NCBI GenBank assembly: GCA_000091205.1
Contig: AP006485.2
Direction: 5' to 3' (one strand)
DNA: 64,000 nucleotides
From: Cyanidioschyzon merolae
Taxonomy: Eukaryota
Position numbers and translations under genes: made by a program. Within the stretch, counting starts at the first letter, position 1. Each line of letters opens with the position of its first letter. This document shows positions 17,299 to 61,875 of this stretch, in pieces. The notes beneath the pieces are model-generated. The model was not told the DNA's origin. It saw only the letters and a program-made list of their open reading frames with translations, and searched no databases.

Positions 17299-17454
17299 TG
17301 TCTATCCAACCGAGTTCGTTAAGTTGACCTACTCCAGAATATTCTAATACGCTCGTATGACTGACGAGCACTCTGACCCTCTGGTGCTACTCTTGGTCTT
17401 CAGCGCCGCGCCCGTTGTCACCTTCTCGTGTGGAGAAAGTGTCTATTTGCAGTA

Positions 17455-29389: not shown

Positions 29390-30850
29390 TTGGCGTACTG
29401 GTCGCTTCCCATATCGAACATACACTCACTATCAGTGAAACAAGAATCTTTTCACGACCATGGAGGGTAAATATATCTACCCACGCGCAGACGCCTCCCA
29501 GTGTTTTTTGACCGGCCTCCTGCTATAGGTTTGAGTTTCTCCTTGTACACTTCGAGCAGCAGAGGCTGGCCCACAAAGTTCGCTCTTGTCAACTCCGCGG
29601 GTCTCTTCTCCGGCACCAAACATTTCCTGATATTGATAGCAGCGTTGGAGTCCTGGTTCGCGAATTCCATGCGTTTATAGCCTCTGGTTGAACTCACCAA
29701 TGCAAGCTGTCCTCGAACTCGCGCCTTCAGAGCCATTTGGTGCTGCTTCAGCTCTCCGTACTTTTCTATCGCCGAAGCGCCCCGCTGGCTGCCCTCCAGC
29801 ACGACCGTCTGAAGTGTACACCCAAGCTCACCCCCTGGATTTTTTACTTTTGAACATGGAAGCGCATCTTCGAGGCCTAGGGTGGGGACCTTCCCGAAGC
29901 GAGAAGGTCTTGTGGAAGAAAGTCGACATGTGCCCCCAGGCTCACCGTGTACTGAATGTTTCAGCGATTCGCCCAGTGGAGTGATCATTACTTTTCAGAA
30001 TACAAAAGACTCCTTCTATGGGGATGAAACACAGAGTCTTCCGAGTAATGAAAAGCAGCTTTGCCCCGACAGAATTCGCATAAACTCGAACGCGTATGGG
30101 CTCGCGAAATGCCATGTCGTTCAATAGTAGAAAGTTGCCGGATGTAAGAGGAAAAGTCTTCAATGATTCGACAAATTGGGTGCTGTTGTATGAACCTTCT
30201 TTACGAGCGGAACTGAGGCCGCCGAAGGAATGCATTCCAGCTTGAACAGATGATGATACCCATGTTCTCTTCAAGCTCGATCGTGCATTCCACGGGCTGC
30301 CTGCTCTACGAATACCAATATACGCCTCGACTGTTTCATTCGAAGCAAGTCTCATCCACTAAAATAACAAACTGACGCTCCTCTGCTTTATTAGCCTCGC
30401 GAAGTACCAGGAACACCGTCGTTAAAATATCGGTGGAAGATGGCCCTGAATGGGATTGGACTTTTTTCGACTGTATCTAGTGATTGCATGACCGCAAGAA
30501 CATACTGTTCAGAAACAGAAACGCCCGTGGTGGCAACTACCTCGCTTTTGCTGCCTGCAATGTGATCAACGAGTCGCCTTCTAATACTCACCCGCAAGCG
30601 GTCTTTGAGAATCCCGGTTTTCGGCAATGAGCGCATCTATTCGTTTCTTTCCGTGTTCCTCAACCACTTGCGTACCGTCGTACGACTGACCAGAATGCAT
30701 AATGTAGTTCTCGTTGCTCTTTTAGTAAAGAATATATCCTACAGGCGATGCGTCAGCGATCTATACAGTAAATTGCATTGTGATGTCGATCTCCTGCTAT
30801 ATACCACAGCAGGGATGGAACAAATCTGAGTAGAGAGTCTGTAAGCGAGC
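29390..30850 (-). mobile_element. F1: pseudogenised TnpB/Fanzor-like element (IS200/IS605-superfamily RuvC nuclease + Zn ribbon), about 1.45 kb
   Basis: Three minus-strand frames (30391..30636, 29942..30355, 29452..29988) together encode about 395 aa. A RuvC-I-like YIGIRRAG has the Asp replaced by Arg. A RuvC-II-like FIPIEGVF is present. Cys pairs (TCRLSS...PCSKV) precede an intact RuvC-III KRMEFANQDSNAAINIRKC. The left-end region at 30700-30845 is homologous to F3 at 51400-51515. Confidence 0.55.
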
Positions 30851-33012: not shown

Positions 33013-33574
33013 CCTTGCGCAGCTGTGTTGTGCGTTTCCAGAAGACACCCACCACTCAGTAAAAGGCCACACGAACGTTAAGATGCGTTGGCGCCATTTC
33101 GCAGCGCTGCGCCACAGGGATGGACAGTTTATGGAATTATTGTCCAGTCTTCCGCGGGGCGTTCCCGCTCTTTGAGCAGCACCACGCTCGAGACGGACGC
33201 GCCATGTACTGCACGCACTGCGTGTGCTGTCTCCATGCTGTGCTCTGCGCCGATCATTGCCCGAAAAGTAGCTGCAAACGTCGCAGTAGGTACAAACTAA
33301 TCCACCTCGTGTCTTGTTCTTCCGTCTCTTCGAAATAACCGAATGTATATCAAATTCATGGATGCTCGTTGCAAGCTCCCGGTCGATTGAGCTTTTTTGC
33401 ACAGACGCCAGTAACATTTATTTCCCAAGTTGCTAATCGTTTCGCTTCCTCCGCAGTTCTAATGGCACTCCATATAGCACATCAGAGCTCAGATAGTACT
33501 CCTCATATTCTCCCAGGTTGCAGAGAAGCGCTGAGGAATCTTTTCTCATGGGGCTTCCAGTAACTACACCGGTA

Positions 33575-34138
33575 TCAGATCCAAACTGAACACTGAACTG
33601 TTCACTCACATCCTCTCTACCAGGTTTTCCGAGTATTTTACGTGGACAGCCCCGCCGTGCAACGAGCACCAACAACAGCTTACACATTCATGCACAGCTC
33701 AAGGATTCCCGATCGCCTCTTCAACGATAATTACCCGACGTCATCGCTCGGCGGCATCCTCTCAAGCTTATGCCGAAATTCCACTGATCTTGTCACGCCA
33801 AAGAATAACCCATTCCGTTCTAGAGACAAACCCTCATCCGCTCTTCGCTGCCGTCCACCATACACCGTTCCACTCCAGAATGATGCGCCTCACGGGGTCC
33901 GCGCCCTCGAGCGCAACCCGAACCGTTTAAAGGTCGACGCTAAGGCAGCCATGAGCACCCTTCGACTGCTGCCAGGGTGCCGGAGGGACGCAAGAGCCCA
34001 GCTCATAGAAAGCCGGATTTGGGGGCAGGAACGAGGATTATGAACAGAAGCTGAAAGAGACCGGAAATGCTGGTTAGGATGGTAACGGGAAGCGATCCCA
34101 GCTGTAGAATGTGTGCCCAAGATAGGTGAGTGGACGTG
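33575..34138 (+). mobile_element. RepC copy 1: miniature internally deleted TnpB/Fanzor-derived element (about 565 bp)
   Basis: One of four near-identical copies. Its 133 aa ORF aligns to F1: the N-terminal part to ...RYFNDGVPGTS (RepC: RLFNDNYPTSS), and the C-terminal part to the Zn-ribbon plus RuvC-III region (RepC LKVDAKAAMSTLRLLPGCRRDARAQLIESRIWGQE against F1 ANQDSNAAINIRKCLVPEKRPAELTRANFVGQP). The 5' end has the hairpin TGAACA-CTGAAC-TGTTCA. The 3' end is ...gataggtgagtggacgtg. Confidence 0.6.
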
Positions 34139-34275
34139 TTCCATTTTAGTTTGATCTTGGTCTGAAGCTCAGCCAGAGCTTTGTATCGTCTGCGCCGAGT
34201 CTCCGATTCTGATTCGGAATCTGTGTTGGCTAAAGCCTCACCGTTCAAAACTGAAATCTAGCTAGTCTTGCGTCT

Positions 34276-35463
34276 ATGCGCAAGCGTGTTCGGGAGACAT
34301 CCCCCAAGGATGCTCCTAAAGAAGACCCAGAAAGTGCACTCACACGGCACGAAGCAGAGGTTTACGATCGACAGCTTAGGCTCTGGGGACACGGCGCTCA
34401 ATGGCGACTCTCACAGAGCTGTGCCTTGATGGTTGTTCTTTCGAGGGGCACATCCGATCTTCTTTGGTTCGAACTCGCTAAAAACCTTGTGCTTGCCGGT
34501 ATTGGACACCTGACTGTCAGCGCTTGGCTTTCGAACCCTGGAAAGTACGAAGGGACCACCGAGAGCGACTCTTGTGCTGTGTGCGGAGAAGGATTGGCAC
34601 CTATTTCAGAGACGCAGGCTTTTAGAGATATCAAGGAAATGAACCCTTTTGTTACAGTGGAGCCTGGACCAGATGCGGGGTCGCTTCTGAAGAGCGTGGA
34701 AAACCTGGTTAACTTGAACGCGAACTGCGTCTGCATCGTTTCACCCGATTTTGAAGAACCGAACCCGCCTTCATCGAATACATCGGATGACATGACCCCA
34801 TGCACACGCCTTGCGGAATTCTGTGCTGAACTGAACATTCCCTGCTTCATTGCTGCGAGCATTGGATACTGTTGCGGTTTCTTCGTCAGCGAACCGGAAG
34901 AAAACGAACACTCGTGTATCCAAGTGGCAGAGGCCTCAAACAAGAGAACGTCTCCGGGAGGCATGCGTTTTCGTAGAGCCGAACAGCATGCAAAACCTGC
35001 GGCCGTACAGGATCCTTCTCAGAATCATCCGCGATGGAAGTCGACCTATGGGAATATTCTGGCCAAATTACGCGACGTATCGCAGGACGACGCTTCTTTG
35101 AATATCGCGAATGAAGACGCATGGCGTCCGTTTCTCAGGTGGATGACGTTCCGGCGGATGCGGATGCCTCATCCCCTCTATAAGGTAATCGGCGCGACAG
35201 CGAGGAGCGCTCTTTTCGCCGAGAATGATGACTCGATCCCAACAAGTGGAAACGTCGTCGATGCGTTGGGCTGGAACTTTCCGCCACTAGCCAAAGTTAT
35301 CGGTGGAATCTGGTCTCTGGAAGTCATCAAAATGCTTGCTGGTATAGATCATACTCAGTATTTCGGGAATTTCTTTTTCTTCGACGGTATGACCGCATGC
35401 GGTGCATTCACTAAGCTCGTTACGAGCGATATTTCGATCGAACCAAGTCGGGCAGATCCATAA
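34276..35463 (+). CDS. SUMO-activating enzyme subunit 1 (SAE1/Aos1), ThiF-family E1
   Basis: YDRQLRLWGHGAQWRL...VLSRGTSDLLWFELAKNLVLAGIGHLTV at the N-terminus, and ...IGGIWSLEVIKMLAGID...NFFFFDGMTACGAF at the C-terminus. Both are characteristic of Aos1/SAE1. Confidence 0.7.
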   Translation: MRKRVRETSPKDAPKEDPESALTRHEAEVYDRQLRLWGHGAQWRLSQSCALMVVLSRGTSDLLWFELAKNLVLAGIGHLTVSAWLSNPGKYEGTTESDSCAVCGEGLAPISETQAFRDIKEMNPFVTVEPGPDAGSLLKSVENLVNLNANCVCIVSPDFEEPNPPSSNTSDDMTPCTRLAEFCAELNIPCFIAASIGYCCGFFVSEPEENEHSCIQVAEASNKRTSPGGMRFRRAEQHAKPAAVQDPSQNHPRWKSTYGNILAKLRDVSQDDASLNIANEDAWRPFLRWMTFRRMRMPHPLYKVIGATARSALFAENDDSIPTSGNVVDALGWNFPPLAKVIGGIWSLEVIKMLAGIDHTQYFGNFFFFDGMTACGAFTKLVTSDISIEPSRADP

Positions 35464-37005
35464 CTCTCCAGCCATGCACGCTCAGTCTGAGGAGAAGACT
35501 GGGATAGCGAATGTTAAAAGCAGTATAATGGTATTCTTTTCGAATCAAGCTCCAACAGGGGCGTCTCATTATGTGATGTTGTCTATTCGTTTCCCGATCG
35601 ATATGCGCCGCGCACAAAACCCACGAGGTTGCTCAGAGCATATGTACCTTTGTCTACATGCCATTCGCAGCTTCCTGATGTTCCTAACAGTTCGCATAAG
35701 GCTAACGGCCGCTCTAACTGCACAGCGGATGAATGCATACGAAGCAGCGGACCGCACTGGGCCGTCTCACGTGTAGAGCAGCGCGAAACTAAGATGCAAA
35801 ATTGGTGTCCAATTCCAGGAACCGGCCTTGAAAACCTGTCCGCTCTGATGTAGGTCGCAAAACGTAACTGAGAGCCCAGCAACCCGTCATATGTCGCCCA
35901 GTTCATGCTGAATAATATTGATTGCCCCTGCGGGTGCAGATGTGTGCATGGTTTGGACAGAGCTTCTATCAGAAACAAATCGTATTGTTTAATCAGGTTG
36001 AACGTCCTTCTTCGTCGCTGACTGTGCAAGCGCATTGTGTGAAAACGAACCAAAAGCATAAAATCTCTCCAAAACCGGAATGTGAATTAAATATTTGTTT
36101 CTGCACAGCACTGTCATGGAGCACTGAGCTTGCTAAGAAATTTTGTGAGAAGTATGGTGCACAGGTTACTTTTTTATTTCGGGACCCATGACGCGCGACG
36201 CTCCCATCCGAATGAATATTTTTAACTCGGGAAGATTGCGACCTCGATGCTTTCCAGCGAGATAACAGTAGACATAGACATTTAAACCAATATAAACGAC
36301 CCCGGGATGTCGCGGATCCGGTGCATTTGAAGATGCAGCGATGTGAATTTGCTTTCCAAGAAAAGTAAATCTAGTTCCACAGATGCGAATACTCTCGGTT
36401 TCATCAGGCTACGAGTATATCTTTTGGATGCGGAGCAAGTCTTGAATAATGCGTTCAGCAGACACAACACAAGTCGGCGCAGCGCCCTTCAGGAATCTTC
36501 ATGGCATGGACCTATTACGTGCTGTGGTAACCTCGCAGAAGCAGCCGGGAGTGGCCGCCACAAGCCCCGGAACTGGAGCTCTTATGGGCTCCTTTCGTTG
36601 CCTCCATGTAGCAAGTAGCATTATGACAACCGCTCTTGTTAAATCTTGCACAACAGAGCATCCATATAAGTAACAGTGAGAAGGAACCAGAGTCTCGAAG
36701 GCACACGGCAAAAGCTGGCCGATATCCAGCAAATTCTTGTGGCTTCTTTAACTGCATCTCGTTACTGAGTGCTAGGGAGCTCCGACATCCTGTTTACGCC
36801 TTCACAGAGACCGAGCAGAAAAAAGTCGTACACGTGCGCATCGAGTGCCGAATGCCCTTGGACCAGGATATTCCACTTGACTCTTTCGCAGTGTGGCTTT
36901 TGATGTAGTTTTTAGAAGGTCCGAGACAAGATGAAGCTATCGAAGCCGTTTGTGCGACTTTCGCGTATGCCAGCTCTGCAAACACGCTGTAACTGCAACA
37001 AACTT

Positions 37006-37570
37006 ATCAGATACAAGCTGAAAACTGAACTGTTCACTCACATCCTTTCTACCAGGTTTTCCGAGTATTTTTCGTGGACAGCCCCGCCGTGCAACGAGCA
37101 CCAACAACAGCTTACACATTCATGCACAGCTCAAGGATTCCCGATCGCCTCTTCAACGATAATTACCCGACGTCATCGCTCGGCGGCATCCTCTCAAGCT
37201 TATGCCGAAACTCCACTGATCTTGTCACGCCAAAGAATAACCCATTCCGTTCTAGAGACAAACCCTCATCCGCTCTTCGCTGCCGTCCACCATACACCGT
37301 TCCACTCCAGAATGATGCGCCTCACGGAGTCCGCGCCCTCGAGCGCAACCCGAACCGTTTAAAGGTCGACGCTAAGGCAGCCATGAGCACCCTTCGACTG
37401 CTGCCAGGGTGCCGGAGGGACGCAAGAGCCCAGCTCATAGAAAGCCGGATTTGGGGGCAGGAACGAGGATTATGAACAGAAGCTGAAAGAGACCGGAAAT
37501 GCTGGTGAGGATGGCAACGGGAAGCGATCCCAGCTGTGGAATGTATGCCCATGATAGGTGAGTGGACATG
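37006..37570 (+). mobile_element. RepC copy 2
   Basis: Identical 133 aa ORF translation (37074..37475) to copies 1 and 4. The terminal ...gtgagtggacATG abuts, and provides, the first ATG of the Hsp78 ORF. Confidence 0.6.
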
Positions 37571-39973
37571 TTCCATATTCAGTCTGACAGCCGCTCTGCC
37601 GCTTTCCGAGAAGCTGCGAGCGCGCGCATTCCGGGTGCGTCGAGATTCGCCGCGAGAATTCCGGCAGGCATCTCACCAGATCGCATTGCGCGAATCGAAA
37701 TTGGTTTTGGGATCAAAATTTGCGTTGGACATGTTCATTCTTCGCTACGAGAAATGCAAGGAAACCAGGACTCGCAACAAGAAGATCCCCTTAAGGTTTA
37801 CGGACGAGATCTGGTCGCCGAGGCTGAGGCAGGTCGACTGGATCCGGTGATTGGTCGCGATGCTGAGCTGCGGCGTGTGATTCAGATCCTGTCAAGGAGG
37901 ACCAAAAACAATCCGGTTCTAATCGGCGAGCCCGGTGTGGGCAAGACAGCAATTGTTGAAGCTCTGGCACAGCGTATCGTACGTGGTGACGTCCCGGAAG
38001 CGTTGTCAGGTACCCGAGTAGTCGCTTTGGATATGGCTGCTTTGATTGCTGGAGCAAAGTATCGGGGCGAGTTCGAGGAGCGTCTGAAGGGTATAATTAA
38101 GGCTGTAAAGGAGTCCGCGGGAAAAATCATTCTATTCATCGACGAAATCCATACTGTTCTCGGTGCAGGCTCCACTAGTGGTGAAAGCATGGATGCAGCG
38201 AATATTCTGAAACCGGCACTCGCTCGCGGCGAGCTCAGATGTATCGGTGCAACTACTGTTGACGAGTATAAGAAGCACGTGGAGAAGGACGCAGCGTTTG
38301 AAAGGCGGTTTCAACAAGTCTACGTATCTGAACCCTCCGTTGAAGAGACGATATCAATTCTGCGGGGCCTTCGACCCGTATACGAGAGTTTCCACGGTGT
38401 TCGAGTAACTGACGCGAGCCTCATCGCAGCAGCACAACTGAGCGATCGGTATATTCGCGACCGCTTTCTACCAGACAAAGCAATCGATCTCCTAGATGAG
38501 GCATGCAGCGCTATCCGGGTACAGCTAGACTCGCAACCAGAAATTATCGATCGCCTCGAAAGGCGGAAGCTGCAGCTCGAGATTGAGGAAACAGCGCTGC
38601 AACGGGAGAAAGACAAAGCGAGCAAGCAACGTCTCGAAAGCGTTCGGGAAGAAATAGCGAAAATAGATGAAGAACTTCGACCCCTGAAGAAGAAGTTTGA
38701 GAAGGAGATGCAGAAGGTGAATGAAGTGCGACACATCAGGTCGAAAATTGAGGAGCTGAAACGAAAAGCGGAGCTTGCCGAGCGGCGTCGGGACCTTGCG
38801 CTCGCCTCTGACCTACGATTTGGTGCGATTCCGGAGTTGCAATCACGACTGAGTCAACTTACGCGAGAAATTGATGAAGAGCGATCCCAGCGAGCATTAC
38901 ATGCGAGTTCGCGACTTTCAGGCACAGAGGCAGAAAGTGCTGTTCTGGTTTCAGAAACAGTGGAGCCCGCGCACATTGCCGAAGTAGTCTCGCGCTGGAC
39001 CGGCATACCCGTGTCGAGACTAACGCAAGGAGAACGAGAACGCCTGCTGCATCTCCGAGAGCGCCTCATGTCGCGAATTGTTGGCCAGGCGCAAGCCATA
39101 TCTGCTATAGCGGATGCGATTCTTCGATCCCGTGCTGGATTTGGCCGTGAGCAACAGCCTATTGGCTCTTTTCTGTTCTTAGGACCCACTGGTGTTGGCA
39201 AGACTGAGACGGCCAAAGCGCTCGCCGTGGAGCTTTTTGACACGGAGAAGAACATTGTGCGCATCGATATGAGCGAATACATGGAGAAACATGCGGTCGC
39301 CCGGCTCATTGGATCACCGCCGGGCTATGTCGGCTACGAAGAGGGCGGCCAGCTCACGGAGGCGATTCGGAGACGTCCTTACTCCGTGGTGCTCCTAGAC
39401 GAGGTGGAAAAGGCGCACCCGGAAGTCTTGAATATACTTCTCCAAGTTCTAGATGATGGAAGGCTCACGGATGGGCACGGGAAGGTCGTCGACTTTAGCA
39501 ACTGCGTCATCATCATGACATCGAATATCGGCAGCAAGTATATCCTCGATCTCAACGGCAGCGCAAAAGATGCTGAACCGTTTGTAATGGAAGAGGTTCG
39601 CCGTACTTTCCGCCCAGAGTTCTTGAATCGGCTGGATGCGATTGTGTTGTATAACGCTCTCGGTGAGGTACAACTAGCTGCAATTGTCCGTTTGCAACTT
39701 GCGGACGTGGGCAAGCGCCTTGCGCGTGAGCAGATTATGCTGCAGTGCACCGATGCTGCTGTAATTCGCATCCTGAATGAGGCGAAGGCGAATCCTGCGT
39801 ACGGCGCTCGGCCTATTCGACGCTTCATCGAGCAAGAGCTCGTGACAGAGTTGAGCCGTATGCATATTTCTGGTGAATTGCTCAGCGGTGGCCGTGTCAT
39901 CGTGGATGTTGATCAGCGTGGGGACTGGATATTCCGGGTCGAAAATCCCAGCCTGATGGATGACGACGAATGA
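37568..39973 (+). CDS. Hsp78/ClpB-type AAA+ disaggregase (organellar; no N-domain, presequence-like N-terminus)
   Basis: Colinear with yeast Hsp78 from [48 protein letters not shown] through both NBDs ([15 protein letters not shown]..., sensor-2 GARPIRR). The listed ORF start is GTG at 37562. The first ATG is at 37568 ([23 protein letters not shown]...). The Arg/Ser-rich start is presequence-like. Confidence 0.85.
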
Positions 39974-40043
39974 TCACGCCCTTCTGTTACCGCACTATGC
40001 AGCCGTTTGAAGCAATATTGGCATAATAATACCTAAACCCTCA

Positions 40044-40607
40044 TCAGATACAAGCTGAACACTGAACTGTTCACTCACATCCTCTCTACCAGGTTTTCCG
40101 AGTATTTTACGTGGACAGCCCCGCCGTGCAACGAGCACCAACAACAGCTTACACATTCACGCACAGCTCAAGGATTCCCGATCGCCTCTTCAACGATAAT
40201 TACCCGACGTCATCGCTCGGCGGCATCCTCTCAAGCTTATGCCGAAATTCCACTGATCTTGTCACGCCAAAGAATAACCCATTCCGTTCTAGAGACAAAC
40301 CCTCATCCGCTCTTCGCTGCCGTCCACCATACACCGTTCCACTCCAGAATGATGCGCCTCACGGGGTCCGCGCCCTCGAGCGCAACCCGAACCGTTTAAA
40401 GGTCGACGCTAAGGCAGCCATGAGCACCCTTCGACTGCTGCCAGGGTGCCGGAGGGACGCAAGAGCCCAGCTCATAGAAAGCCGGATTTGGGGGCAGGAA
40501 CGAGGATTATGAACAGAAGCTGAAAGAGACCGGAAATGCTGGTTAGGATGGTAACGGGAAGCGATCCCAGCTGTAGAATGTGTGCCCAAGATAGGTGAGT
40601 GGACATG
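40044..40607 (+). mobile_element. RepC copy 3
   Basis: 133 aa ORF at 40111..40512 with one substitution (TFTHSS). Same termini as the other copies. Confidence 0.6.
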
Positions 40608-40868
40608 ATCTATTTTTCTTCTGACACAGTTGCAGCTGCTGCGCGAAAACAGCGCGTAAACAGAGTGGCCTCGCTTTCAAAGAGCTACGTCAGACACTGT
40701 GATTTTAGGCGCTCGATATCTTAGCGCATAACTTAAGCTTCATAAACTTAGTGGGTAACTGCACACGAGCGCAGTAGCGTGCCCACGTAGCAGCCTGCTG
40801 CAGGCACGAATAGTTCACGAGAGGCAGCGTTTGCTTCGAGTGCTCGCACAAACGAGGCGTCAGGCCTC

Positions 40869-41501
40869 ATGGGAGGCCGCCAAAGCAAACCGCACAGCAG
40901 CTCTCCGCCTGGAGCCAAGCAGCGACACACGGCACTGGAGCAGAGCTTGGTGCAACCTAGAGCCTACACAGACAATGAGTGGGACGAGGTTATTTCACGC
41001 GTTCGCGCTCACGAGCGGCAGCTATTCTCCAAGAAACAACAGCTCTTTGAGGCGGCAAGTACCGCATACAAAAAAGGACAGGGAGCAGAGGCAAAGCGGC
41101 TCTCTCGAACTGCTCATCAAACCGATGAGAAGTATCGGAGGGCACGTCAGGAAGCCTCGGTAACAATTTTGCACCTAAGGAACCATGGGAAACCTGCGGA
41201 TACTTTAGACCTACATGGCCAATATGTTGAGGAGGCTCTCTCGTTCACCAAACAACGACTCAAGGAGCTGCGGAATATAAACAATGCGCAACGTACATCG
41301 AGTCTGTTGATCATAACAGGTGCCGGACACCATAGCGAAGACGGTCGAGCGAAAATTCGGCCGGCAGTACTGAATTTTCTCCGGAAGAAGGGATATTCCT
41401 TCAAAGAAGAAGGTCCTGGGGCTTTCAGGGTTCATTTGGGCGCGGAAAGCACAGAGGGATGCTTCGCGTCTCTACTTCGGATGCTGGGCCTGAAAAAGTG
41501 A
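40869..41501 (+). CDS. DUF1771-Smr domain protein (second paralogue), N-terminal MGxxxS myristoylation-like start
   Basis: Smr domain: TLDLHGQYVEEALSFTKQRL...LLIITGAGHHSEDGRAKIRPAVLNFLRKKGYSF. A preceding DUF1771-like helix (EAKRLSRTAHQTDEKYRRARQEA) is present. The ATG is at 40869. Confidence 0.55.
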   Translation: MGGRQSKPHSSSPPGAKQRHTALEQSLVQPRAYTDNEWDEVISRVRAHERQLFSKKQQLFEAASTAYKKGQGAEAKRLSRTAHQTDEKYRRARQEASVTILHLRNHGKPADTLDLHGQYVEEALSFTKQRLKELRNINNAQRTSSLLIITGAGHHSEDGRAKIRPAVLNFLRKKGYSFKEEGPGAFRVHLGAESTEGCFASLLRMLGLKK

Positions 41502-42282: not shown

Positions 42283-43372
42283 ACTATGAGCTGCGTGTGC
42301 AGGACTCGACAAGTAGGTCTACAACCAGAGCATTTGTTTGAATGTGCTGCGTCGCAGCCTTGCGACAGATGAGAAATTTCAGCTCTTCGTTGCAGGTTCC
42401 GCCGTGTCATGTCGTCTGTTGCATCTGCTATCCGATAAGCAGTGCATCTCATCATCACAGCTGGCCCAACCAGAATCGTTGAAGTTGCGCTACTCACTAG
42501 GAACGAAGTGCTCATACGAGTAGCCACGTCCCAGCTGACAAGCATTTATGGCACAGCCTTCGTGACTCATTCCTTTGTCCCCTACAAGTGCTTGAACATT
42601 ATCGCCTTAAGATGAAAAAAACACAAACGCGCCTGTGAAATACTGGTACCCTTCCTGAACCTGTGAGTTGGACACATATCGAGAGTTAGTCCACTGACGG
42701 TTGGGCACTCTGCCTCTGATACATAGTGGTGAATTGAACGATTCACCGCTCCGCGCCTTGGAACGCAGGAATAGCGCAGTAGCTATCCCTTTCCATCTTA
42801 TTTTTAGGTGCATGGGCGCGTGTTTAGTGCTAGAGCAGCTCAACAGCGTCAATTCGATACGAACAAGGTAGTCGCACTTCAGGGGTCATAAAGGTCTGTA
42901 AGGTTCGCGGTACTGTCGCGACGGCACTCGAGGTACGCTTTGACATCGTAGAGCTGCAAAGCCTAATCGTTGGTTCGAAGGGATAGCTAAATCGGTGTAG
43001 TACTCCATCACGATACGCAGCTCCAAATATACTCGCTAGACGGCTACAGTTGCGTCGTTGTAGCGGCATTGCAGGCCAACACAGGCAGTTCAGCATCAAT
43101 ATACACCGTCTTTGCGAGCAAGGCGGACTTGTCTTACCTACCGGCACGGATGCTTCGAGGCTTTGTGGTAATGCTGGGCGTTTCGGCATCTGCGACGAAG
43201 CGCCGATATGCACCGGGGGGCGTCGCCGCTTAGTAGAACAAATAAAGATTCAAATCTTGCACTCCACAGAACAATGCGTTGCACTAGCAGGTGATAAACT
43301 AGCGGAGTTGCAGGCTGGAACCGAAAGCTTCCATGAAAAATATGCGAATCAGAACGAAACGCTATACCTGTA

Positions 43373-43936
43373 CCGGATCCAAACTGAACACTGAACTGTT
43401 CACTCACATCCTCTCTACCAGGTTTTCCGAGTATTTTTCGTGGACAGCCCCGCCGTGCAACGAGCACCAACAACAGCTTACACATTCATGCACAGCTCAA
43501 GGATTCCCGATCGCCTCTTCAACGATAATTACCCGACGTCATCGCTCGGCGGCATCCTCTCAAGCTTATGCCGAAACTCCACTGATCTTGTCACGCCAAA
43601 GAATAACCCATTCCGTTCTAGAGACAAACCCTCATCCGCTCTTCGCTGCCGTCCACCATACACCGTTCCACTCCAGAATGATGCGCCTCACGGAGTCCGC
43701 GCCCTCGAGCGCAACCCGAACCGTTTAAAGGTCGACGCTAAGGCAGCCATGAGCACCCTTCGACTGCTGCCAGGGTGCCGGAGGGACGCAAGAGCCCAGC
43801 TCATAGAAAGCCGGATTTGGGGGCAGGAACGAGGATTATGAACAGAAGCTGAAAGAGACCGGAAATGCTGGTGAGGATGGCAACGGGAAGCGATCCCAGC
43901 TGTAGAATGTGTGCCCAAAATAGGTGAGTGGACATG
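43373..43936 (+). mobile_element. RepC copy 4
   Basis: 133 aa ORF at 43440..43841 identical to copy 2. The 5' junction is ...ccggatccaaactgaacactg; the 3' end is ...taggtgagtggacatg. Confidence 0.6.
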
Positions 43937-44940
43937 ATCCTTTTTCTTCTGGCATCAGAGTAGCCGGCTGATGTATGCGAGTCACCTTCGACCGCAACAA
44001 TTCCGATTTATGCAATGCTGTAAATGGAGCATGCATGAGCGACTGCAGTGGGAGCACCTATCAGTCGAGCAAGCGTTCTTCTTTAGAGCTTTTATGCAGC
44101 ACACGGGGCCTCTTTTGCTGATGACTGCTTCTGTCGGAGATCTTTTGAGCTGGGCTGAACCTGCACAGCGGGAACGTTTAGAGGAATGTTGCGCAGACCA
44201 TTACCCGGATTTTGAGACTAGCGTAGCTGCTCCAAATAGATGCCATTGGTGAATATTGTGTTCCAACTCAATTTCGTTTCAATTCCGCTGCGGAGTATAA
44301 CAGGAAATCGAAATCACTATGCAATGTATGGATTAGAGCGCAGACGAATTTCCTAAAGGATGTATTCTTTATCGAGCAGTGCGATGAGGACTGCACTCCT
44401 TGTTCAGGTTATTCATGCCCCAGTACTCAGATGCCAGGGAACACTGAAAGAAACGAGTAGATGCGCTTCAGGCAGAAAACCGATTCTCTCGAAGACTGCT
44501 TGCAGGTCAATGGTAAGAAAAGACATGTTGATCACGTAATGGTAAGCAAAGCGCGACGACTGCAGACGCCACTGGCGTCTCTTTTTCTCAACAGCCTGTC
44601 CGCGTGGTCCTGCAAACACCGGGATGAAGTCCCAAAAAAGTCCCACTTCACTCACGGCCATCTTCCATCGAAATCGCAAAGACAGATTATCATGATATTC
44701 GCGATCCGCATGGAGCAGAGGAACGTCGATTTGTTTTCTCAGACGATGATAGTTCCTTCGGCAGAGGTAGTCCGAGCGTATACGTTGTTTCTCGGAGATG
44801 TGGCCTTTGTATGTAAGATCGAACTTGAAGTGAACTCCGACATCATCTGTTCTAGCTGCAGTGGATTCTTTTAGAGGCCCCAACTTCGCTCATAGAGAAG
44901 GCTTATACAACAGCGTCCACGTTGTCGAATTATTCAAAAC

Positions 44941-45159
44941 TTGTACTTGACTTCTGGGGACGTCCATCTTTTAGACTACCTGGCAAGTGGCCATTACCCT
45001 TGCGTTCGAGCTATTGCGGATTCTGTCCGTTTTGAACTGCCTTCTTTCTCTCTTTACACTTCGTTTTACAACCCTATCGAAGGAGTATTTTGTATCCAAA
45101 AACGCAATGATCGCTCCGTTGCGCGAACCGGCCAGGCGTTCAGAATGGTGGCACACTAG
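44941..45159 (+). mobile_element. F4: short fragment of the TnpB/Fanzor-like family (RuvC-II region)
   Basis: YNPIEGVFCIQKRNDRSVARTGQAF against F1 FIPIEGVFCILKSNDHSTGRIAETF. Confidence 0.4.
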
Positions 45160-45666
45160 AGCACATTTCGTCTTCTCCCGCAAGTTCTTCTTGCCCCGGG
45201 GAAGTCCTCACCTGAACATATGAAGAAGTTCGTTCATTTTCAAATGTAATCTGGATAAGGGAAAGTAAGGGTATGGAAGGTGAGGATCCTGGAAGGCTGA
45301 CGTCGACCGCTGCTAGAAAAAGACGAAAAACAGTTTTAAACCCGGAAGAACAAGACAATACGAAGAAGCAAATAGAGAGGTCAGACTTCAAAGGCTGCAC
45401 AAAAGGCGACATTACGACGAGACGGTGGTGGAAGCAAGTCTTATTGGACATATCAAGGGTCTCCACGAGCCAAATTTGCAAGAGGCCATCACGAACTGTT
45501 CTGAGTCGTGCTCCAGTAATATTTGCAACGCTTCTTCAGGTCTGATGCATTTGGTCAGGGAGATGTATCGCGACGTGACGCATGTGGAAGCGGTTGAGAT
45601 TCCGGACGAGTTCTTCGACAAGACCTTTATTCGTCACCTAATATTTGGCACAGGAGGAACCTCGAC

Positions 45667-47440
45667 GTGAGACAATCGCTTGCTCGCCTTCTACGAATAT
45701 CACGCCGAATGCCGCTCCGACGGTACTCGATACAGGGGTTACCGGGATATTTACAGCCATGGAGCGATGGATTACCTCACGAACCTCAAGAACCATTTGA
45801 CAATGAACCTCGAAAGCTTCATGATTCGCTCCACCTTTGCATTCTACCGGGACCTGTCTCGCAAAGGAATATGGGCCATCATCGGTGTCATCACGAACGA
45901 CCCCATCATGAGGATGAGATCGAATTCCTAGACAAGAAGACGCCATTCTGGAGAACTAATGAAGGTTCTGTAATCCGTGTGGCTCTCGACGACCACCGTG
46001 CGGTACTTGGACTGGCGAATCCAGTAGAAAAGGCATCAGATATGCTAAAAGATGAAAAAATATTACCCCCTCATCCTGCACTCTTTCGTGATCCTGAACT
46101 GAGAGCTCGAACGCAAGGCCGGAATGGAGCACGGCCTGAAAGCAGATAGAGACGAAGAAGCGGAAGGGTTTTCTGCACGAGAAGCTTTAACTTCGTCCCA
46201 TTTTTCACAATCAAGTCATACTTTGTGACAATCGACTTGTGAGTCCTTTATGGCACAATGGAATCTGTCCGAAGTTCGATGTAAGCAGGGAGGAATTTAT
46301 AGGCGAGAACAGGGAGCCTTATTGGAAGAATATCTTCGATTTCAAATGTCTCGAAACGAGCAGGAAAACTTATTTGCCGGGACAATCGAACACGATGGAG
46401 TATGCAAACGTGTTCACTGTAGTAGCTTGAAGGTGGATCGTCGTATTTTGTCTTCGTTGTCGCCCATGAAGAGCCATGTAGGAAACAAGGAGGCGGGCTC
46501 TACTACGCAGGAAGTGCAGAAGAACGACTTCATTGTAAGCGTGGACCCAGGGAACACGAATATCGTTACCATCGCGGCATCCAAGTGCCGAAAAGATGGC
46601 GTCGATGGCAACTTATGCCAGAAAGACATGCGTCTTTTAAAGTTCTCGAGAGCGAGAAAACACGGAGAATCGGGAATAATGAATGCAAGGAAGAAAAGTG
46701 AGACGTGGGACACAGGAATGAAAGAGCATCTGGAAGCGATCATCCAGGTGACGAGTCGTGGAGCGGACTTTGAAGTTTTGCGAGAATTCATAAAATTTCA
46801 GAATGCTCATGACGAGGAGCTGTGGAAAGAGGATACAAAGCCGCTATGGGCTCGTCAGCGACTGAATCTGCTCGGAGGGAGGCAGCGTGCATTCGCCAAC
46901 TTTTTTCAATGAGTTGAGCGCCCTCAAGGAGGACAAGAGTCAAAGCTTGGTGATAGCATACGGAGCAGGGCACTGGGTGACCCAAAAGGGGAGCATACCA
47001 GCTCCATCGAAAAGAGCGCACAAGGAGTGCGCACTCCCTTTCGAAGTGATACCGGTGTATAAATTCCGAACCACATACCTGCATCATGAGGTGGGATGCA
47101 CAATTCAGAGGGGCGAAATAGAGAAAAGCAAGCGGAGCGCTGATAGAGCAGGAAATAGCACAAGGGGCACGAGTTCGAGAACCTCTTCCATTAGTCAGGT
47201 CAAGCAGCGGCAGGAAACGAATGGAATTCGTGAATTGAGACTTGAAACTACCTATAATATCAGGAGATGTGCGGTGCTTGAAGGGAGATCTCCGGAGCTG
47301 ACGCGAACGAACTTTGTGGAGCAGCCTCCGGGGCTCAATTTGTATTAGGAGAAGCTGAAGCCGGCAGCACGGCTGCGGACGAAACAGGTAGGGAGGTGCC
47401 TGCAGCTAGATACTAATTTCGCTTCCATGGTTGCGAAACT
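45667..47440 (+). mobile_element. F2: pseudogenised TnpB/Fanzor-like element (plus strand), frameshifted
   Basis: N-terminal homology VLGLANPVEKAS (compare F1 VLAVMQSLDTVEKS). RuvC-I with the Asp retained (FIVSVDPGNTNIVTIA). A frameshift lies near 46900 (AFANFF | NELSALK...VIAYGAGHW). The Zn-ribbon region is KFRTTYLHHEVGCTIQRG. A degenerate RuvC-III is split over two frames (MEFVN / TYNIRRC). The C-terminal LTRTNFVEQP matches F1 and F3. Sequence 3' of the stop resembles the RepC right end (agaagctgaa..ccgg..cagctagatact). Confidence 0.5.
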
Positions 47441-50027: not shown

Positions 50028-51520
50028 AACGAAAATGTTCTGACCATACAGTGCATAAATACATCCACTTCCAAACGCCTCCGAGCCTCGTTTGACGGCC
50101 CCCGGCTACCTGCTTGAGCTTTCCCTTGAGCAAATCGAGCGTGAGAGGCTGCCCTACAAAATTTGACCGCCCCAGCTCCTCGGGGCTCGTATTCTGCACC
50201 ACACGTCGTCTGATATGGATGGACGCAATGAAGTCTCGGCTCTCGAACTCCACACGTTTATTGCCTCTGGTGGAACTCGCAATTGCAAGGATAGGTAGAC
50301 CTCGTGCACTCTGTGCCACTGCGGCTTCGTCATGCTCTCATTGCGCGAACACATTTCCCCACCTATCTCCCCTTTTCTTACCCTTCTTCTTCGTCACTTG
50401 CTCTTCTTCGCTCGATTGCCGGCGAGAAGAGGATTTTTCGTCCATCCCCGACTACCGAAGATAACCGCATTCCGGGGCCCACGAGTTGCGTATCGATACC
50501 GTTCCCTTGGAATTTTCGTTTCTTCAACTGAAGACACTGCTCTATGCCGTTAGGTGAGGACCTTCCCGCACCGAGCAGCACATGCGGAAGAAAGACAAAA
50601 TGCGCCCCGATGTGTCACCGTGCGCTGAATGCTTCAGCGATTCGCCCGGTGGAACGGTCATTAGGTCTCACGATAGAAAACATTCCGCCGATGCAGTTGG
50701 AACACGGAGCGCACGGAGGAATGAAAAGCAGCTTTGCCCCGAGAGAATCAGCAAAAGCTCGACCGCAAGGGTAATAATGAAATGTCACGCTGTCCAAGAG
50801 AAGAATATCGCCAGACGCCAGGGGAAAAGTCTTTTGTGATTTGACGAAGTGGTTGGTGCTGCTGTATGAGCCTTCTCTACGAGCGAAAACCGAGGCATCC
50901 AAATGAATCCACTCTAGCGAGAAGAGATTGGTCCGCGCTCTCTTCGGGTTCGATCGTGGATACATGGGGCTCCCTGCCCCGCGAATACCCATGTACATTC
51001 CGACCGATTCTTCTGGAACAAGTCTCATTGGCTGGAAAAATGAACCGACGTCCCTAAGGATCATACCGATTGAGACGTTCTAGGAACACTGTAGATGCGA
51101 TTTTGGTGCAAGATGGCCGTGACTGACGTTGGAACTTTTCTGCGATTGTACCCATCGTTTTCAGGATCAGACGAATTTGCTGTTAAGAAACAGAGATGCC
51201 CCAGGTGGCTTCGATTGAGGGTTTTACTTTCAGCAAAAGATTATCAATGATCCGTTTTCTACCATTTACAGAAACCAGTCCTTGAGAATGATAGTTTTTG
51301 AGCGCAGCTCGTATACTTGTTTCGTTCAGTGGCCCTCGACCATCTGGTTTCTGTGGTGTGACTGACCTTAATGTGGAAACCAGTCTTTCTTGCATTATTA
51401 TGTAAAGAATCTATTCTACAGGCGATTAATCTAAGATCTATGAGGTACGTTCGATAGTGACTTCGATCTCCCGCTAAATACCGCAGTAATTTGGAAAAGA
51501 ATTGAGCTAGAAGAGTCGAA
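49990..51520 (-). mobile_element. F3: pseudogenised TnpB/Fanzor-like element (minus strand)
   Basis: N-terminal ORF 51183..51395 (…SIRAALKNY, compare F1 SIRRRLVDH). YMGIRGAGSP is a RuvC-I with the Asp lost. FADSLGAKLLFI is present. A degenerate RuvC-III KRVEFESRDFIASIHIRRR is followed by LGRSNFVGQPLTLDLLKGKLKQVAGGR. The left-end DNA at 51400-51515 is colinear with F1 30700-30845. Confidence 0.5.
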
Positions 51521-52415: not shown

Positions 52416-53890
52416 ATTACGCAAGACATTGCTGTCATCGGGATGTCGCATCATATGGCACGGAAGCTTCCCATTAAGGACTCATGAGACAAATCACAAT
52501 TGCTGCTTCATTAACTGGGCCATAACGTGTGCCATTTTCAGCTGTTTGGACATCCGTAAGGCGCAGCAGCAAAAGTGCCTGCCGAGGGAGACGCTTGTCC
52601 AAATACGAGGCAGTAGACCAAACGAGAATTACGTTTCCATCTCGGTCGCATGCCAATTTCGTCCTGAGCGTTTTTTTAAACATGATGCAGACGACGTTTT
52701 GTACTTTCTGGGAGATGGTGGCCGTGGAAAGCTCTGAAACGAGTTTGAGAATCAGGGAGCGTGTATCATTTATTTCGTCGTTCCTCTCATTATCTGGAAT
52801 TGAGTGTCTTATGTGCGCATCTAAGAGCATGAATGTAATATATAAGAATGGGTCGAATCAACTTCGCAAGACCGGAGAACTACTGGGCGACAGCAAATTA
52901 CGATTTCTTTCAGAGTCCGGCGTAGTTGTGGACTAAGTGTGGGACGCCCGCAGATCTTTGTCAAAAGGTGCCTCTACATTTGATTTATGCACAGCTATGC
53001 GGAACTGTTTGCAAACAGTGAAGAATATAGCGGATTATAAGAGGCTGAGAGCAGATAATCTTTTGCTTAAAATGCTTAATCAGAACGGACCACGCGAAAT
53101 TTCAGACAAGCTTTGTGGTTGCAAAGAGAAGTGGACCACCGTGATCGGATCTTACGCAGGCCAAATTCGAGTTCGCAGCAGGGCACGGAAATTTGGCTGT
53201 TTCATTACGTAAAGGTTAGTGAAGGGGATGCACCCCTCTGAGTTACATTCATTCAGACTGTGGGGTTTATAGCTTGACTGTGACAGTAAGAAAGTAAGTC
53301 CGAAAGCTGCGTGTGCGTTTTCGTCGCAGAGAAGGGCGATTCATAAACAAATATGTTTCTTGCCAGATATTGTGACGTATTCGAGATACACAGAAACCGC
53401 GATCTTCTTCCTTCTAAACCAGCTTCCATGAAGCGAGCGAACAACGTGTCCCTCTGAGCCTGGATAGCAGCGTTCATGGTTTGCATCAAGAATCACTCAG
53501 TGCCAAGAGAGCGTGATGAGCAACTCGCACTTCGTGGATTGATGATAATGGAGGCCCTTATTCGATCAAACGCAAAGATGTACATTTGCAAAGTGGAGGA
53601 CTCGTACACCTAAATATTTTTCACTGTTCAGCGAGTATGTTGCGCCAAGTGAGCATACAAATCAAAAAAAATGCGTGAAAAAATTGCCGCATCCATCTTC
53701 AAGGCGACCAACATTGGCGTATAACGATGCGCATAAGTGCAATGGCGGGAAACGCAGAAATCAGCTGTCCCTACAGATATTCCCTTTTAAAGCAAACAGA
53801 ACAGAGGGAGGAAATGGCATGAAATCTGCAAGGGTAACAGTGTAGGGGCAGGACCCTGTGGGTACCATTTGCTCACGCGCTAGGGTACCG

Positions 53891-54488
53891 AAGTCAGCAC
53901 TAAATGGAAAAGATCTACGCAGACTGACACCGGCGTACATTCTCGTGTTTGGGTTGCTTCCCAATGAAGTCCAAACCAGCCTTTGAAGTATTTTTCTCTA
54001 CATCCGCTTCCTTCTTGCTCGATCCTGGTACCGACTTTAAATACGCTTGTTTCACATACAACTCCAGTTTTGATGGTAGCAGCCGAAAGATGTTGATGGC
54101 AGTGTTAGGGTCCCTGTTTCGGTGCCTCCGCCTGTAGTCCCAGCATTTGATGCTCATATGGCATTTGCCATCTGCGTTGAGCTCGCCAGTTTTATAATCG
54201 CTGTACATTGCCTCGTTGCGCTCTTCGTGGATGTGAAACTATTCTGCGGTTAGGTGTTCCTATGCGTCCACCACAGCTCGCAATCCGTGGGCGGCCCTGT
54301 GGCGCTTGAATGCTTGCGTCAGCGTATGGTCCACGTCGTTGATGGGTACAGAAGGCTCTCCTCGGTGCCGTCCGCCAATTCCGCGCCCGATACCGTACCC
54401 AGCAATCAGGAGCTTTTTCCGCACGACAACCTCAACGAGTGTTCTGTCCGGCGCACACGCAAGTTTATGGTCTTATTTTTCGTAAGGG
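53891..54488 (-). mobile_element. RepD copy 1: second TnpB/Fanzor-like family, 3' portion (Zn ribbon + RuvC-III)
   Basis: Minus-strand ORF 53915..54208: ...GKCHMSIKCWDYRRRHRNRDPNTAINIFRLLPSKLELYVKQ matches the C-x6-C...R-D-x-N-x-A-I-N-I signature. An upstream frame encodes KKLLIAGYGIGRGIGG...TQAFKRH. The copy is truncated relative to copy 2 at about 54488. Confidence 0.5.
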
Positions 54489-54784
54489 CACCATTCGGAA
54501 CGCTGGAGGGGTCCTATTCTCCCCTGACGAGAAGACCGGATCACGTGCTGGGATCAAATTGAAATTGGCGTTGCGATTTTGCGCTTTGCCGACAAATTAA
54601 ATTCGATGGCCGAAACCATTTCCGAAAGTTTGCGCATTGCCCGCTGGTATTCACAGAAATTTACTAGAATATTGTTCGGAGAAAGAGTCATTTTTATTGT
54701 AAAATGCTTTACGTTCGCATCGATATTATTCCCGACGGATAATTTACTTCAGGAAATGTTTGGCACGCCTCTACCGCGCGGTCT

Positions 54785-57149: not shown

Positions 57150-58488
57150 AAAGGTATATCTGGTGGAATCAAGCGATACCTTCGCTCGTTATGTTAAAGC
57201 CCAACACAAAATTGACTGGTGCAGTTCTTGCTTGCGCTATTTCATCCAGAATGCGGTTGAAATCCGCAGCTGTGCATCCTTGGCATATCCGAGAGAGCCT
57301 GGCTGGAGACCCGTTTACGGTGCGTGAATTGTGTGGGTCTTATCAGGTGCATCGGTCGGAAGGTTTAGGTTCCCCAAATCAATCTTTCCTTTTTCCAATG
57401 TGAGTCATTGTTGTGTCACATGACTCGATTCTGTATCTTAAACACCTATCCATATTCAACTCTGGGTTGTCATTTCTGGATGCCGACTGATTGCGATAAA
57501 CATCCTCGCCAGGAGAAGGTTCCTGGGTTCCCGTAACAATTCTGTCGTTTGGATTTTCACGTATTCTAAACCGTATATCACTCATGCGAAATCTGGGAAG
57601 ATCGAAACTAAGAGCTCTATGCATTATGAGGCAAAAATTAGGCCATGTTGATCGTCCATAAAGGAAGCCGATGCACTTCTTGTATCATTCGCTGCTTGAA
57701 AATTGGTCGAAGAGTTCAACCTTCATTTTTGAGAGTGCATCATTCAGCGGGCGGTCATTCCGCAGTTTCGTTGCGTCACGGATTCGACGGATCGTTTGCG
57801 ATCCGTCGAATGGTATTCTTAGTGATGGAAACCATGAGCATGCCAGATCGTCTCAACTTGCTGAATGCGGAAGAATCATTTCTCTTTCAGATCAGAGAAC
57901 TTTCGAATTTATTTAACGTCGCCACCTCTAGAATCCCAGAGACTCGTGTGTTCGCGATTGACCTATCTGGCTGCCAGTTTTATTTATTCAGCTCATAAAT
58001 CTATGCAGCTGGCAAATGAGATGCCTTCCAATTGGCGAGATGGTCGCAAGCAATTGAGAATTGCGATGATATCTGTAAGCACTTTTGAGCTCTGTGGGTG
58101 TACGTATGAAATACCTCATTTGACGAGGATAGAGACGCACCACCGCATAACCTTGTGCGCTGTACAAGCCAGCACATTCTGCAGACCGTGATACCATCTG
58201 GCATGCGCTTTCTCATCGGAGTATTTAAGCTTCTGCCTGCAACAAAGTTTCGTTTTTTCTTCTGGGCCGCGTCCGCCAACGAAAGGAGACCACGACGAGA
58301 AATGTTGTCACGTTCGCATAGCGGGGAAGAGATGTTTGAACTCTGCGAAGATGCTTCATCGTGAATGATTTGATAAGTAGGAACTCTCTTAAATATACAC
58401 CTCTCACGGCGAGCGGATTCGACGTCTCTGCCCCAGACACCTGCAGAGCACGCAAGCAGCAGTCGCTGCGAACTGCTCGATCCATCAA

Positions 58489-59450
58489 AGTCAGCACTAA
58501 ATGGAAAAGATCCACGCAGACTGACACCGGCGTACATTCTCGTGTTTGGGTTGCTTCCCAATGAAGTCCAAACCAGCCTTTGAAGTATTTTTCTCTACAT
58601 CCGCTTCCTTCTTGCTCGATCCTGGTACCGACTTTAAATACGCTTGTTTCACATACAACTCCAGTTTTGATGGTAGCAGCCGAAAGATGTTGATGGCAGT
58701 GTTAGGGTCCCTGTTTCGGTGCCTCCGCCTGTAGTCCCAGCATTTGATGCTCATATGGCATTTGCCATCTGCGTTGAGCTCGCCAGTTTTATAATCGCTG
58801 TACATTGCCTCGTTGCGCTCTTCGTGGATGTGAAACTATTCTGCGGTTAGGTGTTCCTATGCGTCCACCACAGCTCGCAATCCGTGGGCGGCCCTGTGGC
58901 GCTTGAATGCTTGCGTCAGCGTATGGTCCACGTCGTTGATGGGTACAGAAGGCTCTCCTCGGTGCCGTCCGCCAATTCCGCGCCCGATACCGTACCCAGC
59001 AATCAGGAGCTTTTTCCGCACGACAACCTCAACGAGTGTTCTGTCCGGCGCACACGCAAGTTTATGGTCTTATTTTTCGTAAGGGCTCTGTGGAAAGCGG
59101 TGTCGTCCTTGATAAAGCGAGTACCGGAAGGAAAATCATCAAATTCGAAGATCAAGTCTGGAAGTTTCGACCCGAGAACGCTCTCTTTATGCAACCTGGC
59201 GACGCATTCTCCTGTGAAAGTGACTGCCACGATGACTGGAGTCCATCTCAAAGACCCTTTTCCAAGCACACGGCAGAGACGAGGGCCCCTTGGGGCATAC
59301 TCCGTGGTGCGTGTCATGCTGCAGGCGAATGCTGTTTCGTCGATGACCGCAAAAGAGTGGCGGGATTTGTCCCTCGAACGGGATCGATTATCAGAAGTGA
59401 CAAGTTCGGTGAACGCTCTGCATGATGTTGTGAGCAAGTCGTCAAAGGAC
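58489..59450 (-). mobile_element. RepD copy 2 (longer): TnpB/Fanzor-like family 2
   Basis: 58489..59087 is near-identical to copy 1, with the same ORF translations at 58497..58805 and 58546..58734. It extends upstream on the minus strand through ORF 59003..59437 (…SFAVIDETAF…), which may cover the RuvC-II region. Confidence 0.45.
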
Positions 59451-61718: not shown

Positions 61719-61875
61719 GCTTATTCAAGACGGCAGCCTCACTGCCTGATTTGCTGAAGAGTTTCTGGTCGCGTTTCCCACTGGAGCTTTCGCGTGACAA
61801 ATCCAAGTGCGCATCCGCTGGACCTCATAAGAGAGGAGCATCTTACGCTCCGACAGCCTTTAAATACGTTTGAAA

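Follow-up and report, generated by a model that had tools for sequence, protein, structure and literature searches.

The N-terminal Clp_N domain of ClpB proteins is dispensable in the known short forms. In E. coli, ClpB80 is a short ClpB isoform produced from an internal start near codon 149. Hsp78, a mitochondrial ClpB-type protein devoid of the N domain, carries a mitochondrial presequence. Repeated elements can also supply upstream starts to genes, as described for exonised transposons and other repeats. The genome of Cyanidioschyzon merolae contains 253 copies of a species-specific interspersed repeat with a mean length of 3.2 kb, which is transcribed and carries a truncated WSV486-like ORF (PMC1955436). 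In the same species, HSP100 has been reported to be very highly expressed (PMC4224343).

In this study we examined a window of 64,000 nucleotides (the whole stretch of DNA that was analysed), the sequence of which matches C. merolae 10D, and in which a ClpB-type gene lies downstream of one of four copies of a repeat, here referred to as RepC. A preliminary description, made from the sequence alone, had named this gene Hsp78 and pointed to an ATG at 37568, at the 3' end of RepC copy 2, as the first in-frame ATG of its ORF. That ATG is indeed the first one of the maximal ORF (37562-39973), which is preceded by an in-frame TGA at 37559-37561 and comprises 803 aa counted from its GTG or 801 aa from ATG 37568. 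The HSP101 coding sequence occupies 37754-39973 on the plus strand and specifies a protein of 739 aa identical to C. merolae 10D BAM79051.1, which is annotated as 'heat shock protein 101' and has the N-terminus MQGNQ.... The start of HSP101 is ATG 37754, 186 bases downstream of 37568, because four independent lines of evidence agree on it, namely orthologues, strain polymorphism, DNA-level conservation and peptide chemistry. Homology limits and the reference annotation likewise fit a start at MQGNQ, so that, of the possibilities raised in the preliminary description, the one left standing is a start at this methionine without any presequence.

Pfam searches with the ORF product identified AAA (117-245), AAA_lid_9, AAA_2 (530-692) and ClpB_D2-small (698-779), that is, the two AAA+ modules and the D2-small domain by which ClpB/Hsp104/HSP101 disaggregases are recognized. 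Clp_N (PF02861) was not found by Pfam in the window protein or in its Cyanidiococcus and Cyanidium orthologues, whereas it is present in most of the other top matches; given its dispensability in known short forms, its absence marks a variant and does not exclude the protein from the disaggregases. The nearest relatives are those of Cyanidiococcus (91-92% identity, 739 aa), and the Cyanidium caldarium orthologue is 80% identical (746 aa). Beyond the Cyanidiales, the following matches, with 60-65% identity, are cytosolic plant ClpB1/HSP101 and Hsp104-type proteins of amoebozoans and fungi. Judged by their names, the 120 best matches were all ClpB1/HSP101/Hsp104-type, with none called Hsp78, ClpB3 or ClpB4. 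The best solved structure was plant ClpB1 (9ip0, 904 bits), and the matches to ClpB/Hsp104 structures were near full-length, beginning at residues 64-72 (52-76 at the widest) of the conceptual 801-aa protein; the first matched residues correspond to residue 152 of E. coli ClpB and residue 163 of plant ClpB1. ClpB homology therefore sets in directly after Met63, the methionine of MQGNQ, and residues 1-62 matched neither a solved ClpB/Hsp104 structure nor a Pfam domain. Read from MQGNQ, the protein has an acidic N-terminus, its first 20 aa having a net charge of -2 and its first 40 aa one of -4. Other N-domain-less relatives also open with short polar N-termini, one of them being a transcript-based call with a complete ORF. 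By its best matches, the gene product resembles a cytosolic HSP101/ClpB1 without its N domain and not a mitochondrial Hsp78, in line with the reference name HSP101, and the earlier label finds no support. A C. merolae HSP101 lacking its N domain may be of interest for genome work on Cyanidiales.

As the preliminary description had suggested, we compared the locus with orthologues lacking the insertion. The gene order RPA1 (minus strand), ThiF (plus) and HSP101 (plus) is conserved in the orthologous loci, and the 14 kb surrounding HSP101 contained no RepC relatives in either Cyanidiococcus or Cyanidium. In all of them the protein starts at the homologous Met, an in-frame stop being located 21 codons upstream in Cyanidiococcus yangmingshanensis, 3 codons upstream in a second Cyanidiococcus lineage and 12 codons upstream in Cyanidium caldarium; between stop and Met there is no upstream ATG in either Cyanidiococcus lineage or in Cyanidium. 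The short form is the sole form encoded by the Cyanidiales gene. A literature search yielded nothing usable on C. merolae transcription start sites or on HSP101 in this species.

The comparison of strains was based on 17 fetched loci, corresponding to 16 distinct environmental contigs (one was fetched twice) with 99.4-99.8% identity to the window. RepC copy 2 occupies the same place in all 16. A strain-specific 1-nt difference is located at 37704 (plus strand), where the window has G and every other contig AT; TTGATTTTTGGG is found in 16/16 contigs at the place where the window has TTGGTTTTGGG, and the form of the window in 0/16. In the environmental contigs the repeat ATG is consequently 187 nt, not 186, upstream of the HSP101 start and out of frame with it, and opens an ORF of only 75 codons that ends inside HSP101. 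ATG 37568 is thus in frame with HSP101 because 10D has one base fewer at 37704, a difference sufficient on its own to set the frame. The proposal that the ATG of the element had been adopted as a start fails accordingly, the frame relation existing in this strain only.

Consistent with this, an 11-member protein cluster contains no form of 801 or 803 aa. Gene calls on the contigs extend HSP101 in a different frame, to 807 aa, from ATGs located deeper in the repeat, and the 90% cluster representative for HSP101 is an 807-aa longest-ORF form of this kind, in a frame different again. No in-frame upstream ATG whatsoever is present in contig L004; it lacks both ATGs of the 807-aa form, since its copy 2 ends at the 3' side in copy 1/3-type sequence. 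As the 'presequence' shifts frame or vanishes among strains whose mature protein is identical, it is not coding sequence. Moreover, a leader with long upstream ORFs out of frame, as it would have in most strains, sits poorly with the high expression reported for HSP100. In three contigs, similarity to the window breaks off 0-13 nt before the HSP101 ATG, and each continues into a different 5' sequence; these junctions could be chimeras formed at the transcript end or assembly artefacts, and the 5' parts of two contigs (L003 and L006) had no match among the sequences compared. The ends of contigs were also considered as transcript ends, a reading that was rejected because they fall inside repeats, as assembly breaks would.

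The four RepC copies are direct repeats of ~580-600 nt, 97-98% identical, all on the plus strand. Copy 1 (33561-34160) lies upstream of a ThiF-family gene (34276-35463). Copy 2 (36993-37590) consists of a near-identical core (~37024-37570) followed by weaker family similarity to ~37590. Copy 3 (40030-40629) starts 57 nt past the HSP101 stop codon, upstream of an Smr-domain gene (40869-41501), and copy 4 (43359-43958) is truncated and joined to another locus in contig L014. The sequence GGTGAGTGGAC(A/G)TG is common to all four, and the motif GGTGAGTGGACATG (37557-37570 in copy 2, plus strand), found in 4/4 copies with GTG for ATG in copy 1, holds both the in-frame stop TGA (37559-37561) and the upstream ATG (37568-37570). 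The preliminary description had taken this motif, with its ATG, as the terminus of the copies. The shared motif was confirmed, but the ATG ends the near-identical, homogenised core and not the repeat: similarity among copies and to the older family runs ~20 nt further (TTCCATaTTcAGTCTGAC, ...TTCCATATTCAGTCTGAC, to ~37590). It follows that codons 1-7 (MFHIQSD) are still repeat-derived, contrary to the view that the 'presequence' begins directly in non-repeat DNA. In other subfamilies the position of the ATG is occupied by CTT, CCG or CTC, an indication that the ATG was not part of the element ancestrally; on the same grounds, the idea that it represents the ancestral start of a duplicated gene was rejected.

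The repeat family to which RepC belongs is species-specific and ~1.2 kb in length; RepC itself has an internal deletion, and its copies undergo gene conversion. In contig L012, which is from another strain, the copy-1 site is occupied by a 1.16-kb version that has 547 additional nucleotides internally, which identifies RepC as an internal-deletion derivative. When this full-length sequence was used as an nhmmer query, divergent relatives (~55% identity) were detected within the window at 39-1018, 7531-8539 and 16344-17355 on the plus strand and at 53887-54519 and 58484-59887 on the minus strand, while a 19-mer scan of the metagenome contigs gave matches at the four RepC sites only. The same dimorphic variants occur in different copies in different strains; this movement of variants among copies points to gene conversion and explains the sharp-looking edge of the core at the ATG. 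Neither terminal inverted or direct repeats nor target-site duplications were found flanking copy 2, and the ends of RepC are fuzzy and without an A-run. In Pfam, neither the repeat-internal ORFs (133 aa on the plus strand, 84 aa on the minus strand) nor the long ORFs of family members had a match, be it to a transposase, a reverse transcriptase or any other domain. When subfamilies were compared, the six frames received similar scores, none being favoured, and a conserved TTCCAT considered as the start (ATGGAA) of an antisense gene was dropped on this basis. Between 33000 and 45000, Rfam searches gave no match at E<=1, and the window contained no tRNAs. In some contigs, either copy 3 or copy 4 of RepC is joined to a different locus, and relatives of the element are also located at synteny breaks with respect to Cyanidiococcus. 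These repeats, a small family that gene conversion has homogenised and that occurs at synteny breaks, may likewise be of interest for work on Cyanidiales genomes.

The 62-codon 'presequence-like' extension (37568-37753, plus strand) is judged to be non-coding, i.e. promoter or 5' leader DNA, because its frame is lost in 16 contigs, it has no counterpart in the orthologues and it shows no ClpB homology. It includes a conserved block (37606-37702, plus strand) that aligns with Cyanidiococcus upstream DNA at about -148 to -55 from the ATG and that, by local alignment, keeps its distance to the ATG in both Cyanidiococcus lineages. The alignment scores were 30 and 36, whereas shuffled sequences averaged 10 and never exceeded 18 (0/500 shuffles as high), and the block contains AGAATTCCGG (37655-37664), similar to GAAGAATCCGG of Cyanidium. 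Mismatches counted on the alignment are distributed over the three codon positions as 3/5/5, with no 3-nt periodicity, and in-frame stops separate the block from the start in Cyanidiococcus; both features identify it as conserved non-coding DNA. The preliminary description had also contemplated an insertion exactly at the start codon; with this block interposed, and the element ending ~165 nt upstream of the real start, that scenario does not hold.

On sequence grounds, the block is probably a promoter or regulatory element, most simply a promoter-proximal one. We infer that it belongs to the promoter and not to the 5' leader, and hence that transcription starts downstream of 37568. If functional, a TATA-like CAAAATTT at 37714-37721, together with an initiator-like TCATTCT at 37735-37741, would put the start of the transcript ~17 nt before ATG 37754. 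A strict scan for heat-shock elements (GAAnnTTCnnGAA or its complement, <=1 mismatch) gave no match in 36900-37760, and the block is therefore not called a heat-shock element; a scan for bacterial promoters and terminators, a method not applicable to eukaryotes, was empty. An exact second copy of the 11-mer found at the RepC end, TGGACATGTTC, is located at 37726-37736 (plus strand); it is partly conserved in Cyanidiococcus (contig L007) and contains an out-of-frame upstream ATG (37731), 23 nt before 37754. The position-conserved upstream block of HSP101 may interest those working on Cyanidiales genomes.

The stretch 37568-37753 is GC-rich and free of stops in two plus-strand frames, so that a 1-nt change switches between them. 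Its conceptual peptide is presequence-like in composition, with 6 Arg and 15 Ala+Ser in 40 aa and a net charge of +3. The codon-usage score of the extension is 0.175 per codon, a value reached by only 3-5% of stop-free non-coding windows, and that of the frame linked to HSP101 in other strains is 0.259. We attribute the score to composition, given that the two frames cannot both be coding and that neither shows conservation; codon-usage scoring was abandoned as a test of the extension, as it finds two frames mildly coding-like and does not discriminate. The 300 nt preceding 37754 were subjected to 5000 dinucleotide shuffles; 6% of these produced an in-frame ATG 50 or more codons upstream, and 8.8% produced at least 62 open codons before the HSP101 start. 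The in-frame repeat ATG is a chance occurrence, unremarkable for a genome of about 4800 genes.

Very probably, then, HSP101 is translated from 37754, the upstream ATG being fortuitous and RepC copy 2 a non-coding repeat upstream of the gene. The gene would encode a cytosolic-type disaggregase that naturally lacks the ClpB N domain, and RepC copy 2 would lie upstream of its ancestral promoter-proximal DNA, the four local copies having presumably been homogenised by gene conversion. The ATG at 37568 would be in frame solely through the base missing at 37704 in 10D and the lack of stops in two frames of this GC-rich stretch, and the 'presequence' would be the conceptual translation of ~20 nt of repeat and then of conserved regulatory DNA. 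While the position of the start, the lack of conservation of the frame, the absence of the extension from orthologues and the DNA-level conservation of the block are established by these comparisons, transcription in 10D from upstream of 37568 that yields a longer protein has a slight probability.

Such a protein is the subject of one competing reading: the 1-nt deletion of 10D might have created a genuine longer isoform, translated from ATG 37568 on transcripts that begin within RepC or upstream of it, with a new 62-aa leader rich in Arg, Ala and Ser that could target an organelle, so that alternative starts would bring about dual targeting. The open frame, in which 37568 is the first ATG past the in-frame stop, the presequence-like composition, a codon score in the top ~5% of open non-coding windows and the reported transcription of interspersed repeats in C. 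merolae (PMC1955436) are all compatible with it, but the state is unique to 1/17 sequences, no orthologue has the extension, the leader is a DNA-conserved block without codon periodicity, and the transcript would also carry the out-of-frame ATG 37731, and more if it began upstream of 37545. We consider this isoform very unlikely. Equally improbable is its boldest version, a minor 801-aa isoform restricted to 10D, made if transcripts from within or upstream of RepC exist, whose leader was born from non-coding DNA and could direct some disaggregase into an organelle; if true, a targeting peptide would have emerged de novo very recently and at the level of a single strain. The converse possibility, that the real extension is the 807-aa form of environmental strains, initiated at RepC ATGs in the other frame and lost or changed in 10D, draws on the many metagenome gene calls that give this form and on the top codon score of its frame (0.259). 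These calls take the longest ORF, as inferred from products started with GTG or TTG; the ATGs are missing in contig L004 and protein P0128, which have a copy 1/3-type 3' end of copy 2; they sit in a recent repeat absent from the sister genera; and the frame is broken in 10D. This reading is exceedingly improbable.

A different doubt concerns the reference itself, since 16/16 independent contigs from many samples agree against the window at 37704, where a miscalled homopolymer or an AT-to-G error would mean that the ATG of 10D is out of frame as well. An error is unlikely, as the 10D genome was finished to 100% (PMC1955436) and the difference, a substitution plus an indel, is no simple homopolymer slip; if there were one, the main conclusion would be unchanged. 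Finally, RepC, which precedes the gene and has its orientation, might have landed on or beside the original start codon, replacing the N-terminus or presequence of a mitochondrial Hsp78. With ~165 nt between the end of the repeat and the start, including a block position-conserved with Cyanidiococcus, with orthologues of repeat-free genomes beginning at the same Met and with a protein whose best matches are of the cytosolic HSP101/ClpB1 type, the probability of this event is negligible.

Our preferred reading, translation of HSP101 from 37754 behind a non-coding repeat, has little biological consequence, in that the GenBank gene model is already right and the repeat donates no start codon. In practical terms it calls for caution, as longest-ORF gene calls on contigs of this kind create false N-terminal extensions.

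Compared with known systems, the Cyanidiales protein has the same two AAA+ modules, AAA_lid_9 and ClpB_D2-small as plant HSP101/ClpB1, fungal Hsp104 and bacterial ClpB, the class-1 AAA+ disaggregases, but the ~150-aa Clp_N domain of these proteins is missing in all three Cyanidiales genera examined. Like E. coli ClpB80 it begins at the N domain/NBD1 boundary, at the equivalent of E. coli ClpB residue ~151, with the difference that ClpB80 is an alternative product of a longer gene, whereas the Cyanidiales gene encodes the short form only. With mitochondrial Hsp78 it shares the ClpB-type architecture without the N domain; in contrast to Hsp78, the Cyanidiales orthologues have no presequence and the N-terminus of HSP101 is acidic. 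As in exonised elements, a repeated element supplies an in-frame upstream ATG, yet that of RepC is probably neither part of the mRNA nor used, and is not conserved even among strains. Lastly, RepC recalls the dispersed 253-copy element of C. merolae (PMC1955436) in being species-specific and devoid of transposon hallmarks and in having several divergent relatives in the window, and differs from it in its size (0.6 kb, or 1.16 kb at full length, against a mean of 3.2 kb) and in having no conserved frame or Pfam match.

All four RepC copies of strain 10D (33561-34160, 36993-37590, 40030-40629 and 43359-43958) share the same internal deletion. In one environmental strain, the counterpart of copy 1 is a full-length element of 1.16 kb (contig L012:1-1045, corresponding to window 33674-34160) that contains 547 nucleotides of extra internal sequence. 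Divergent relatives of the full-length element, each at about 55% identity, are found at 39-1018, 7531-8539 and 16344-17355 on the forward strand and at 53887-54519 and 58484-59887 on the reverse strand; they include two near-identical pairs (7269-8484 with 16082-17297, and 53891-54489 with 58488-59086). Analysis of these relatives in the window revealed no coding frame and no match to Pfam or to an RNA family.

Dimorphic variants occur at positions 37507 and 37515 of RepC copy 2 and at the equivalent sites of copies 1, 3 and 4. The same set of variants is present in the different strains, with a copy-by-copy distribution that differs between them (contigs L003, L004 and L016). Because this pattern is mosaic across both copies and strains, the sequences indicate that RepC copies exchange sequence by gene conversion. 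In some environmental contigs, a PCI/RPN7-like gene is joined to a truncated RepC copy 4 or copy 3 (L014:3535-9080 and L032:2989-6238); such a junction is either structural variation or the product of an assembly path that runs through the repeat. A 256-aa ORF is also present in L014 and, by eye, resembles 3-hydroxyacyl-CoA dehydrogenase; both this ORF and the PCI/RPN7-like gene are absent from the window.

The genes for RPS8e and an Mfd-like helicase (window regions 61876-62667 and 4132-6651) are neighbours of HSP101 in Cyanidiococcus; in the window they lie 22-33 kb away and are inverted relative to that genus. RPS8e is closely preceded by a 653-nt repeat that occurs in two copies with 99% identity (61067-61719 and 9033-9685). 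Another family of repeats, ~950 nt long (29881-30831, 44261-45213 on the reverse strand, and 50552-51512) shows 66-68% identity, and a 320-nt pair occupies 29450-29767 and 47122-47438, the latter on the reverse strand.

Two exact copies of the 11-mer TGGACATGTTC lie upstream of HSP101, one at the RepC copy 2 end (37563-37573) and one at 37726-37736, 28 nt ahead of the true start; elsewhere in the window it was found only at the other RepC ends, each differing by one base. Three contigs contain the exact HSP101 coding sequence, with 5' ends that become unrelated 0-13 nt ahead of the start codon (L003:1-122, joined at window 37755; L005:1-38, at 37741; and L006:1-117, at 37749). One of these ends is a fragment of HSP101 itself, and the three contigs may be chimeras formed at the 5' end of a transcript.

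The representative of the 90%-identity cluster of HSP101 in a large protein collection (P0001, a metagenome gene call) is extended at its N-terminus by 68 aa translated from the repeat and from probable promoter DNA, and the cluster has 807-aa members; this extension is spurious. A 1.5-kb stretch (35500-36990), whose longest ORF is at most 158 aa, separates the ThiF-family gene from RepC copy 2. In Cyanidium only 273 nt separate the ThiF-family gene from HSP101. The Clp_N domain is missing from HSP101 in three Cyanidiales genera (window 37754-39973; P0003 and P0004), in which the protein starts at the point equivalent to residue ~151 of E. coli ClpB, a start comparable to that of the short bacterial isoform ClpB80.
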